Shown here piece by piece: positions 1,411-5,043 of a DNA stretch of 6,866 nt. The notes below the pieces were generated by a model. That model saw only the letters and a program-made list of their open reading frames with translations. It had not been told where the DNA came from and searched no databases. Position 1 is the stretch's first letter. Every line of letters starts with the position of its first letter. The stretch is taken from the IMG/VR virus record IMGVR_UViG_3300049597_000266; one strand, written 5' to 3'. Source of the stretch: a virus (Duplodnaviria > Heunggongvirae > Uroviricota > Caudoviricetes). A program made the translations under genes and the position numbers.

Positions 1411-1849
1411 ACTGCAGACGGTGGACGACTGGCTTAGTGCCTTACTGGCGAATCTGGAACCAGTCGCAAGAAGCCGCATGATGCGCCAGCTGGCGCAGGA
1501 ACTGCGCCGGACACAGCAGCAGAATATCAGGATGCAGCGCAATCCAGATGGCAGCAGTTATGAACCGCGCAAGGTCACGGCGCGCAGTAAAAAAGGCCGC
1601 ATCAAACGTCAGATGTTTGCAAAGCTGCGCACCACCAAATACCTGAAAACCGCCGCCAGCGCCGACTCTGCCAGCGTACAGTTTGAAAGTAAGGTGCAGC
1701 GCATTGCCCGCGTTCACCATTATGGCCTGCGCGATCGCGTCAGCCGCAAAGGACCGGAAGTGCGTTACGCAGAGCGTCGTTTGTTGGGTCTTAATGGTGA
1801 GTCTTACGTTCTAACTCGTGATATATTGAATAGATTCCTTCTGTCTTGA
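1403..1849 (+). CDS. S: Tail completion protein S (P2 gpS-like); last ~17 codons lie in the AT-rich island (probably a chimeric C-terminus)
   Basis: 148-aa ORF with motif LEPVARSRMMRQLAQELRRTQQQNIRMQRNPDGSSYEPRK matching my recollection of the P2 gpS N-terminal region. GTG 1403 overlaps the R stop by 8 nt. From about nt 1798 the codons become AT-rich and rare for enterobacteria (cta, ata, aga) up to the stop at 1847-1849. Confidence 0.8.
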   Translation: MAELQTVDDWLSALLANLEPVARSRMMRQLAQELRRTQQQNIRMQRNPDGSSYEPRKVTARSKKGRIKRQMFAKLRTTKYLKTAASADSASVQFESKVQRIARVHHYGLRDRVSRKGPEVRYAERRLLGLNGESYVLTRDILNRFLLS

Positions 1850-2700: not shown

Positions 2701-3279
2701 ATGAACGCACAACTAACCGAAATCATGCGCCTTATCACCAATCTGATCCGCATAGGTGTAGTCACCGAAGTGGACCGGGAAAACTGGCTTTGTCGGGTGA
2801 AAACGGGCGACCTTGAAACCAACTGGATCAGCTGGCTGACGCTGCGCGCGGGTAATGCCCGCACATGGTGGCGACCATCGGAAGGTGAGCAGGTGGTGCT
2901 GCTGAGTCTGGGCGGCAATCTGGAGACTGCCTTTGCGCTGCCCGCTGTCTATTCGAATCAGTTCGCACCACCGTCGACGTCGGCGGACGCCTGCGTGACA
3001 GAACATCCTGACGGTGGCTGGTTTGAATACGAACCCGCCACCGGGCGCTGGTATGTCAGGGGCATCAAATCAATGGTCATTGAGGCCGCTGATAACATCA
3101 CCATGAAAACCAGTGAGTTTGTACTGGAGGCTGACCGCACGCGCATTAACAGCGAAGTGGTGATCAATGGTGGCGTTACCCAGGGCGGCGGAGCGATGAG
3201 TTCTAACGGGATCGTGGTTGATGCGCATCAGCATACTGGCGTCCTGAAAGGCGGCGATACAACCGGAGGCCCGGTATGA
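2701..3279 (+). CDS. V: Baseplate assembly / spike protein V (P2 gpV-like)
   Basis: 192-aa ORF, MNAQLTEIMRLITNLIRIGVVTEVDRENWLCRVKTGDLETNWISWLTLRAGNARTWWRPSEGEQVVLLSLGGNLETAFALPAVYS..., matching my recollection of P2 gpV (..IRTGIIVETD..CRVQTG..WLTHRAG..RTWWAPSVGEQV..GGELDTAF.LP). Start placed at ATG 2701, the first ATG after the AT-rich intergenic region; ATG 2725 is an alternative. No clear Shine-Dalgarno. The ORF-track extension back to 2458 is rejected. Confidence 0.85.
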   Translation: MNAQLTEIMRLITNLIRIGVVTEVDRENWLCRVKTGDLETNWISWLTLRAGNARTWWRPSEGEQVVLLSLGGNLETAFALPAVYSNQFAPPSTSADACVTEHPDGGWFEYEPATGRWYVRGIKSMVIEAADNITMKTSEFVLEADRTRINSEVVINGGVTQGGGAMSSNGIVVDAHQHTGVLKGGDTTGGPV

Positions 3280-3635: not shown

Positions 3636-4530
3636 CCTTTCGCAGTTGCCTGCGCCGCAGATTGTCGATGTGCCGGACTTTGAGACGTTGCTTGCCGAAC
3701 GCAAGGCCGAATTTGTTGCGCTTCATCCGAAAGATGAGCAGGAAGCCGTGATCCGCACGCTGGAACTGGAATCTGAACCCGTCACCAAATTGCTGCAGGA
3801 GAATGCTTACCGTGAGTTGCTTCTGCGCCAGCGCATTAACGAAGCCGCGCAGGCGGTGATGGTGGCTTACGCGATGGGCGGCGATCTTGACCAGCTCGCT
3901 GCCAACTACAACGTGAAACGCCTGACGGTGACGCCTGCTGATAATGACGCTGTGCCGCCCGTTGCGGCTGTGATGGAAAGCGATGAAGCGTTACGCCTGC
4001 GTGTGCCTGCAGCCTTTGAAGGGCTTTCAGTTGCGGGGCCAACTGCAGCCTATGAATTTCATGCCCGAAGCGCCGACGGTCGGGTGGCGGATGCCAGTGC
4101 AACCAGTCCGGCACCTGCAGAGGTGGTACTGACTGTCCTTAGCCGTGAAGGCGACGGAACAGCAGAAAAAGACCTGCTGGATGTGGTGGAAAAAGCCCTG
4201 AACAGTGAGAACGTCCGCCCGGTGGCTGACCGTCTGACGGTTCGCAGCGCAGAAATCATCCCGTATCGCGTGGAAGCCACCATTTTTCTCTATCCGGGAC
4301 CGGAAGCAGAGCCGGTAATGGCAGCGGCAAAAGCCAGCCTGCAGAAGTACATCGCCAGTCAGACGCGTCTTGGTCGGGATATTCGCCGTAGCGCCATCTT
4401 TGCCGCCTTGCATGTTGAGGGTGTGCAGCGTGTGGAGCTGGCTTCTCCTCTGGCGGATGTGGTCCTGAACAAAACACAGGCGGCATCATGTACGCAGTGG
4501 AGCGTAACCAACGGAGGAACGGATGAATAG
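3622..4530 (+). CDS. J: Baseplate assembly protein J (P2 gpJ-like)
   Basis: 302-aa ORF from ATG 3622 with AGGAG at 3611-3615. Sequence MAVIDLSQLPAPQIVDVPDFETLLAERKAEFVALHPKDEQEAVIRTLELESEPVTKLLQENAYRELLLRQRINEAAQAVM...RLGRDIRRSAIFAALHVEGVQRVELASPLADVVL matches my recollection of P2 gpJ. Overlaps the W 3' end by 14 nt. The ORF-track start at 3583 is an in-frame upstream extension. Confidence 0.9.
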   Translation: MAVIDLSQLPAPQIVDVPDFETLLAERKAEFVALHPKDEQEAVIRTLELESEPVTKLLQENAYRELLLRQRINEAAQAVMVAYAMGGDLDQLAANYNVKRLTVTPADNDAVPPVAAVMESDEALRLRVPAAFEGLSVAGPTAAYEFHARSADGRVADASATSPAPAEVVLTVLSREGDGTAEKDLLDVVEKALNSENVRPVADRLTVRSAEIIPYRVEATIFLYPGPEAEPVMAAAKASLQKYIASQTRLGRDIRRSAIFAALHVEGVQRVELASPLADVVLNKTQAASCTQWSVTNGGTDE

Positions 4531-5043
4531 TCTGCTGCCACCGGGTTCAACACCACTGGAGCGCCGACTGGCGCAAACCTGCAGCGGGATTTCTGATCTG
4601 CAGGTGCCGCTTCGTGACTTGTGGAATCCGGCAACCTGTCCGGTCAGTTTCCTGCCTTATCTCGCCTGGGCGTTCTCTGTGGATCGCTGGGACGAGGACT
4701 GGACAGAAAGTGTCAAGCGCCAGGTGGTGAAGGATGCTTTTTATATTCATCAGCATAAAGGGACCACCAGTGCCGTGCGGCGGGTGGTGGAGCCGTTCGG
4801 CTTTCTGATCCGCATTATTGAGTGGTGGCAGACCGGATAAGCGATGCCAAACCATGCAGCCGTCACATGATCGGCATGTCCATCAACCTGCAGACCAGCG
4901 GCCCGCATTGGGTGGGAGCCGCCAGCTATCTTGGCGAAGAAATCACGATCTATCCGTATATCAACGAAACAATTATTTCCGGTGGCACCGCGCATGAAGG
5001 CGGGGCGGTCCATGTTATTGACACAATGAGAGTGAATCCATGA
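4523..5043 (+). pseudogene. I: Baseplate protein I (P2 gpI-like), interrupted by a frameshift near 4819-4840
   Basis: The N-terminal 105-aa ORF (4523-4840, frame 2) carries typical gpI motifs (LWNPATCPVSFLPYLAWAFSVDRWDEDW...VVEPFGFLIRIIEWW). The downstream ORF (4822-5043, frame 1) resembles the gpI C-terminus (DAKPCSRHMIGMSI...EEITIYPY). The two overlap by 19 nt, and the combined span (521 nt) is 1 nt short of a single ~173-codon gene. The ATG overlaps the J stop; the second ORF's stop overlaps the H ATG. Confidence 0.6.

Follow-up and report, generated by a model that had tools for sequence, protein, structure and literature searches.

Morons are extra genes in phage genomes, in the sense of Hendrix and colleagues. 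The slot between the tail gene S and the baseplate gene V is one of three moron regions of P2-like phages, as given, after Christie and Calendar, in PMC6823313. In P2 this slot holds orf30, which resembles the gene described here in lying between S and V on the opposite strand and in being AT-rich, non-essential and variably present. No relationship between P2 Orf30 and the present moron was detectable, however (BLASTP E-value 0.047 over 66 residues); Orf30 belongs to phrog_2407, whereas the moron found no match in PHROGs, and no Pfam family is shared. Also, 72 nt and a putative terminator separate S from orf30 in P2, whereas S and the moron described here share 59 nt, without a predicted terminator. 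Morons of the S/V slot that are convergent with S are known from Cartapus (CARTA_14, 5-nt gap) and Klebsiella phage ST11-OXA245phi3.1 (QBP08096, 4-nt overlap). The S tails of both are diverged, gpS-like and AT-rich, with GC content of 0.20–0.25 compared with 0.45–0.69 in phages without the island and 0.49 in P2. Their morons belong to other protein families, and a long stretch coding on both strands is not present.

Antisense overlapping genes of EHEC are known cases of overprinting (PMC5960689, PMC9927249). The present locus is like them in that one stretch of DNA is predicted to code for two proteins, one of which was probably extended over an existing gene. It is unlike them in that only the C-termini overlap, convergently, both partners being annotated genes with Pfam families, and in that the younger part would be a short extension and not a whole gene. 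A same-strand overlap, lysB/lysC, is present in the same window. 'Grounded' prophages, in which useful prophage genes are selectively retained during decay (PMC6379469), are a general concept and not a family; the likeness lies in intact DUF6216 genes, the family of the present moron, which are kept beside fragments of S, R, V, ogr, int or cI. Rousset et al. (2022, PMC9122126) described an antiviral hotspot of P2-like phages beside cos, and a term search of their paper gave no mention of orf30, gpS, gpV or baseplate. The hotspot is likewise a small, high-turnover locus between conserved phage genes, and short DUF6216 relatives also occur in accessory regions of other mobile elements, but no family among the PADLOC-DB 2.0 defence models matched the moron at E-values up to 1. 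The ideas of mosaic exchange, morons, overprinting and 'grounded' prophage genes are already established (PMC6379469, PMC5960689), and the arrangement varies the known mosaicism of phages in a tidy way without being a system of a new kind. In the searchable full-text literature, no description was found of a conserved convergent both-strand segment shared by an essential tail gene and a moron, of a module of S tail, moron and promoter, or of recurrent DUF6216 survival at ybjL/rcdA.

The window, that is, the whole stretch of 6866 bases analysed, is 99.8–100% identical to a defective P2-like prophage of E. coli C and of the E. coli B/BL21 lineage. Its source is the defective P2-like (Fels-2/186-like) prophage located between ybjL and rcdA in E. 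coli B and C, and the laboratory strains E. coli B/BL21 and C have the DUF6216 moron gene. The prophage is flanked by ybjL and rcdA in E. coli C (L024, 1196000–1232000). The genes of the window are in P2 order, R, S, V, W, J, I, H, G, with lysB and lysC upstream of R. The window shares with E. coli C a deletion of the capsid, terminase-small, head-completion, X and holin genes, and its prophage is therefore unable to make virions. At about 295–330, the C-terminus of scaffold gene O runs straight into a C-terminal fragment of a lysozyme gene, the two being fused by deletion. The main features are as follows.

979–1410: tail gene R.
1403–1849, + strand: tail gene S, tail completion / virion morphogenesis, 148 aa (Pfam PF05069 Phage_tail_S, E-value 3.5e-38; same coordinates in PGAP).
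1403–1798, + strand: S core, codons 1–132, of the local phage lineage type.
1799–1849, + strand: S tail, codons 133–148 and stop, predicted C-terminal helix, cassette-borne.
1790–1801: left junction zone, with island-specific differences at 1790, 1792 and 1797 and dense mismatches from 1801.
1791–1849: both-strand coding region, 59 nt including both stop codons, S residues 130–148 and moron residues 250–268.
1791–2597, − strand: moron, predicted membrane protein of the DUF6216 family, 268 aa, GC content 0.33.
2701–3279, + strand: baseplate gene V (Pfam Phage_base_V and Apex), with the right mosaic boundary at its start codon.

Gene S sits between R and V in the P2-like late region, and its product scored 131.2 bits against PF05069 (cut-off 24.3), with residues 3–146 aligned to profile positions 2–147 of 148. 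According to the list of open reading frames, S and a 268-aa ORF of the minus strand (1791–2597) converge and overlap by 59 nt. The earlier note had claimed this overlap, and NCBI PGAP agrees with it, as the identical two genes and overlap are annotated in E. coli C and E. coli ampC_0069. These 59 bases encode the final 16 codons of S on one strand and the final 19 of the moron on the other; S terminates in ...NGESYVLTRDILNRFLLS and the other strand in ...GIYSIYHELERKTHH. The AT-rich 3' end of S with rare codons, which the same note had pointed out, was recognized as well. The codons cta (1811–13), ata (1823–25) and aga (1832–34) were read there, and GC content in 60-nt windows drops at about 1790–1800, from 0.55–0.63 at 1700–1799 to 0.32–0.35 at 1780–1879. 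By our own estimate, an open antisense frame of 19 codons has a chance of about 0.25 in such DNA, and the overlap alone is therefore not statistically remarkable; it is its conservation that exceeds chance. Every examined phage-context relative with a readable S ORF has an overlap of 47, 59 or 83 nt. In a Buttiauxella MAG (L012), a synonymous change in moron codon F250 (TTC to TTT) abolishes the S stop codon, so that S is eight residues longer (...LLSQIHHGRNV) and the overlap is 83 nt. In the provirus fragment L035 (IMG/VR 3300009034_000404), S ends prematurely as ...LLGLNGKS*, the overlap is only 17 nt, and the moron terminus reads ...HELEPKTYH.

Relatives without the island are phage 500465-1, Fels-2, a prophage of E. 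coli VG12A2, and Klebsiella phage ST13-OXA48phi12.1. In all four, S and V are 68 nt apart with no gene between them, and S codes for 148 aa. The gene in the window is thus a moron in the usual meaning, present in some relatives and absent in others between conserved genes. The length of S, which the earlier note had called roughly preserved, is exactly that of the close relatives without the island. When aligned with the VG12A2 prophage and phage 500465-1, the S core (1403–1789) was 90–92% identical at the nt level, and the S tail (1799–1849), of equal length and without gaps, only 43–45%. This fall of identity places the left junction at 1790–1801, in agreement with the position near 1795–1800 proposed from composition. 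On the other side, the 66 nt upstream of the V start codon (2635–2700) were 48% identical to the same two sequences, and the first 300 nt of V (2701–3000) were 96% identical. By these comparisons, the exchanged segment is about 900 bp long (about 1799–2700); beside the moron, it contains the S tail and the late V promoter in a diverged copy. The sequences on either side of the moron align as same-length, strongly diverged, AT-richer homologues of the native sequences. The statement that an insertion had replaced the native 3' end of S is accordingly partly right: the S tail was exchanged, but the V promoter copy was exchanged together with it, so a simple insertion does not describe the event. 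Only short, chance-level pairs of inverted or direct repeats were found at the junctions, and transposition or site-specific insertion is not indicated. A distant P2-like phage would be the source of the cassette, which more probably spread by homologous recombination within V and the conserved core of S; its origin would not be a raw insertion with destruction of the S end. We infer that moron cassettes of the S/V slot travel together with an S tail, with the recombination point in the conserved S core.

The composition shift could also be coincidental, the S tail being native to the lineage and only the moron having been inserted downstream of it; native length and the tail motif of S would both agree with this. 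Nucleotide identity, however, falls to 43–45% exactly at 1799 next to a core of 90–92%, the tail type was found only in DUF6216-linked S, and the moron ORF lies physically on the same bases as the S tail. Coincidence is scarcely credible against these three observations.

The S tail has GC content of 0.37 and reads ESYVLTRDILNRFLLS, compared with DVEAMTRDMILQWLAG and EVETVTRDTLLRWLAG in native tails. The pattern T-R/L-D-x-L-x-R-aromatic-L of gpS tails is retained in it. On a profile built from 50 gpS proteins with distinct tails and no link to a DUF6216 moron, the real tail scored 10.6 bits above shuffled tails (sd 1.3), and none of 1000 shuffles reached its score; for the commoner TLD variant of the tail, one shuffle of 1000 did. 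In the AlphaFold model, residues 132–147 form a terminal helix with pLDDT 83–87, in a whole model that is poor (pLDDT 67, pTM 0.27). A sequence search of PDB with S gave no relevant match. A comparison of 120 close gpS homologues showed strong mosaicism beyond the conserved RRLLG motif. DUF6216-linked tails make up a single family, N-[GDNK]-[ED]-S-[YI]-[VD]-L-T-[LR]-D-I-L-[NH]-R-[FY]-L-L-x, with invariant hydrophobic positions, and this type was seen only in DUF6216-linked S proteins. The C-terminus of S had been called chimeric, which stands insofar as its 3' end lies in the AT-rich segment; a foreign tail is contradicted by the retained gpS pattern. The alignment named in the earlier note as a possible refutation gave a mixed result, as the motif is conserved in gpS of phages without the island but the actual sequence is island-specific. 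On the pattern and the profile score, the S tail is a true gpS tail and not a foreign one.

The moron has GC content of 0.33, compared with 0.56–0.57 in its flanks. Its product scored 44.4 bits against Pfam PF19723 (cut-off 27.3), residues 72–237 being aligned to profile positions 114–265 of 270, and PGAP names it a DUF6216 family protein. The close homologues, 32 in number, are 262–268 aa long and 50–98% identical. The AlphaFold model (pLDDT 83, pTM 0.68) contains a long helix at residues 183–247, and its best Foldseek match in PDB had a meaningless E-value of 0.35. The moron body in L012, L021, and L042 has 44–48% aa and 56–59% nt identity to the window, and in L012 the nt identity of the moron is about 57% compared with 81–83% for the flanking phage genes. 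Such fast divergence of the body suggests relaxed or diversifying selection. Residues C154, C177, and F129 (window about 2067–2212) are invariant across DUF6216 relatives down to 19% identity and belong to a small beta-sheet region flanked by predicted long helices; C154 and C177 may form a disulfide in an exposed domain of the model. As a best guess, offered with low confidence, the moron would be an inner-membrane protein expressed from the prophage, with a function in lysogenic conversion or phage exclusion. Short DUF6216 relatives were also met on other mobile elements (L017, L048–L050), namely upstream of a holin-endolysin-spanin cassette, on an AlpA-type element next to genes with GAAD/GASH domains, and beside an integrase fragment near a gene for a SNIPE-domain nuclease. 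These settings fit a role in phage conflict or lysogenic conversion, as an association only.

The profile search for DUF6216 relatives covered 1.84 billion representative proteins and found 49. Full-length distant relatives (at least 14, with 20–34% identity) have 232–246 aa and end at about residue 247. The moron does not have this family-typical C-terminus, as it continues for 21 residues past it.

1794–1856, − strand: subfamily-specific moron extension, residues 248–268, GEFKTEGIYSIYHELERKTHH.

The extension, GEFKxEGIYxIYxELER, was found only in the close S-adjacent subfamily and in protein P0153 (274 aa, 40% identical). Short relatives whose surroundings could be read are located on other mobile elements or at ybjL/rcdA without a readable S. 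In the S-adjacent subfamily, the extension is 17–27 residues long and almost exactly matches the overlap; in the window the extension comprises residues 248–268 and the overlap residues 250–268, and the start of the extension is within 2–3 codons of the S stop. AlphaFold predicted the extension as a separate helix (residues 252–267, pLDDT about 62). The last four moron residues vary or are missing among homologues, as is expected if each copy reads its local S sequence. The TAA stop of the moron (1791–1793) is supplied by S codons L130–N131 (CTT AAT). An ancestral stop at codon 248 (1854–1856) would sit 4 nt from the S stop, a packing as in Cartapus.

From the family comparison, the DUF6216 gene would have lain stop-to-stop with S, about 4 nt apart, and then have lost its stop codon. 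Reading would have continued for 17–21 codons over the antisense strand of the S tail until halted at the stop formed by S codons 130–131. Most likely, the newly coding part is the C-terminus of the moron and not that of S. The whole locus is probably best explained as a mosaic cassette in the S/V slot in which loss of the moron stop codon created the overlap and both frames were then held. A P2-like phage in which a short DUF6216 gene adjoins S stop-to-stop was not encountered among 50,697 GenBank phages or in IMG/VR scans, and the latter gave no confirmed short DUF6216 relative. A profile of the short relatives proved too diverse for scanning. A short contig (L047) was rejected, as there is no S beside its short DUF6216 gene, and so was a 741-bp ORF in the S/V slot of R18C, which is on the same strand as S and represents a different arrangement.

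The order of events may have been the opposite. If the extension predated entry into the phage, the insertion would have removed the native tail of S, and S would now read the antisense strand of the moron as a tail made de novo, its likeness to native tails being due to chance plus later selection. P0153, with its extension at a chromosomal ybjL/rcdA locus that has no S remnant, would also fit such an order, and the S tail shares AT-rich composition and rare codons with the moron. Single changes can moreover approach the consensus, as in the E. coli B/C copy, where moron Q260H turns S L139 into R139 and restores TRD. Against this, the tail has exactly the native length and a profile score beyond all its shuffles, and the coincidence of the extension start with the S stop within 2–3 codons is not predicted. 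The V promoter flank is also a same-length diverged homologue, which indicates a phage donor, and the P0153 locus is at a phage attachment site with an 18/21 match to the cassette edge. We therefore hold an origin of the S tail by such capture to be unlikely, and continue with loss of the moron stop codon as the preferred reading.

The weight of P0153 depends on how DUF6216 genes at ybjL/rcdA are understood. They were found between ybjL and rcdA in prophage-like orientation in Citrobacter youngae, C. sedlakii, and an Enterobacteriaceae MAG, and in the same position and orientation in the draft and metagenomic genomes that code for P0153, P0154, and P0158. The DUF6216 gene of Scandinavium is downstream of ybjL, and rcdA was not seen within the locus. 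Phage fragments beside the gene are V, S, and R (L008), ogr (L009), V, cII, and cI (L011), and int (L018). The copy of Klebsiella aerogenes adjoins an IS3 transposase and has fragments of V, S, and R. An intact DUF6216 gene beside phage fragments was listed for L008–L011, L013–L016, and L018–L023. No phage protein fragments were detected in L013 and L014, the latter having an 18/21 match to the cassette edge, with one half of TGT-N12-ACA in the matched stretch (0 of 500 shuffles). An 18/21 match upstream is the sole phage trace at the P0153 locus. The idea that the Citrobacter copies are native chromosomal genes was rejected, as fragments of S, R, V, and ogr are located beside them and the locus is an attachment site. 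From these remains, DUF6216 genes at ybjL/rcdA are read as morons left by decayed prophages, the moron apparently outliving its prophage repeatedly. Read in this way, they weaken the objection that P0153 raises to stop-codon loss.

In the overlap, the first codon positions of S and the moron face each other, second positions of S face third positions of the moron, and third positions of S face second positions of the moron. In this phase nearly every change therefore alters one of the proteins. Such dual constraint would explain the slow evolution of the segment, and the rare S codons ata and aga would persist, as a change to a commoner synonym changes conserved moron residues. In diverged phage-context pairs (L012, L021, L042), extension codons 248–264 have 80–86% nt identity compared with 56–66% elsewhere in the moron. 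This excess in the overlap is absent from L014, a locus without S, where the extension has 53% and other parts 52–57%. Some changes co-vary in both frames: moron S257A with S N143H, G254 GGA/GGT with S F145Y, and Q260H of the B/C copy with S L139R. Four loci where S is a pseudogene have disruptions of the S frame, namely a stop (L010), L-to-P (L009, L010), and F-to-R, T-to-A, and Y-to-W (L009), several of them synonymous in the moron; the moron extension remains conserved at such loci. The S ORFs of phage-context loci showed none of these disruptive changes, except for the early S stop in the metagenomic provirus L035. In this contrast of phage-context and decayed loci, based on about 12 distinct sequences, selection appears to hold both frames, which is supported and not proven. 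Recent recombination instead of selection could account for a part of the conservation of the overlap.

Transcription signals of the cassette are located between the moron and V.

2598–2700: region between moron and V, a cassette-specific copy of the late V promoter region, presumably also the moron promoter.
2602–2607, − strand: Shine-Dalgarno-like AGGTGG, 4 nt upstream of the moron ATG (2595–2597), read from the sequence.
2637–2654, + strand: TGT-N12-ACA (TGTACCATCGATACCACA), presumed Ogr/Delta activator site of the late V promoter.

The distance from TTTGT to the V start codon is 66 nt, the same as in phages without the island, and the centre of TGT-N12-ACA is 55.5 nt before this codon, a spacing that agrees with the activator site and transcription start annotated for P2. 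The site is intact in all phage-context loci; its ACA half-site is lost in decayed L009–L011. The intergenic region of 103 nt is almost invariant among the window, L007, L008, L012, L021, L038, L039, and L042, cassettes whose moron proteins are only about 50% identical. When 1650–2800 was scanned, no terminator was predicted, no sigma-70-like site was found by consensus upstream of the moron, and promoter-like sites were fewer than in shuffles. The RNA fold downstream of the moron stop had z = -0.06. A long hairpin at 1776–1876 followed by a T-run (z = -2.4) was rejected as a terminator candidate, as it is not conserved in diverged cassettes; its T-run represents conserved Q-K-N codons of the moron. 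As no terminator is predicted, interference between late and moron transcription, which had been proposed previously, seems plausible.

The overlap might even be a selected linkage device that entrenches the cassette, combined with late shut-off of the moron and with moron RNA antisense to R and S, but this is doubtful in our opinion. Because the essential S helix is encoded antisense to the moron 3' end, a simple deletion or recombination could, on this reading, not take away the end of the moron unless S were lost or given another tail. In lytic growth, the moron would be silenced by late transcription that converges on it from the O operon, and the moron transcript, with no predicted terminator, would be an antisense RNA to R and S in the lysogen.

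Of 5426 complete E. coli genomes, 111 have the island, as do 19 IMG/VR proviruses, among which several are 34–38 kb long. Using tblastn with the moron and a short relative, no match was obtained among 50,697 GenBank phages. The overlap could be a by-product of decay in a defective prophage, with no significance to a working phage, since the capsid gene is among those missing from the E. coli B/C prophage, gene D is truncated there, and gene I is broken in the window. However, the same 59-nt overlap is present in the prophage of E. coli ampC_0069 at ybjL, which has a full P2-type gene set and zero pseudogene flags, and the overlap is also found in proviral contigs of 34–38 kb. The ampC_0069 prophage also has an S of the same allele type as the window, which would indirectly support a function of this S in tail completion. 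In both this prophage and these contigs, the hydrophobic positions of the S tail are invariant. An origin by decay is thus very improbable, and we return to a mosaic cassette with an overlap made by stop-codon loss.

The locus reveals the working of an accessory slot at base resolution, where the exchanged unit is a module and not the moron alone. As the module brings its own end of the upstream essential gene and its own copy of the downstream late promoter, structural function would survive the swaps. It is also a clean, datable case of a protein that would have gained a C-terminal helix by reading the antisense strand of its neighbour, for which the decayed loci are natural controls with one frame freed from selection. 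Survival of DUF6216 genes after prophage decay, together with their fast divergence, makes the protein a candidate host-beneficial or phage-conflict membrane protein.

Minor differences were found between the window and E. coli C. Three SNPs are located at 1419 (S K6T), 2054 (moron T182S), and 2088 (synonymous). Tail gene I is broken at 4837/4838 (ORFs 4523–4840 and 4822–5043), where the window has 83–85 bp fewer than E. coli C, which results in a frameshift of gpI. In all listed records of E. coli B, BL21, and C, the gene I stretch matches in two pieces, as if these bases were present. A retron with a St85-family reverse transcriptase and an effector adjoins the portal gene in the E. coli C prophage (L024), which we take to be the locus of retron Ec86 of E. 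coli B. In the intact-looking relative of ampC_0069, next to ybjL, a DUF262 gene is in the place of the retron.
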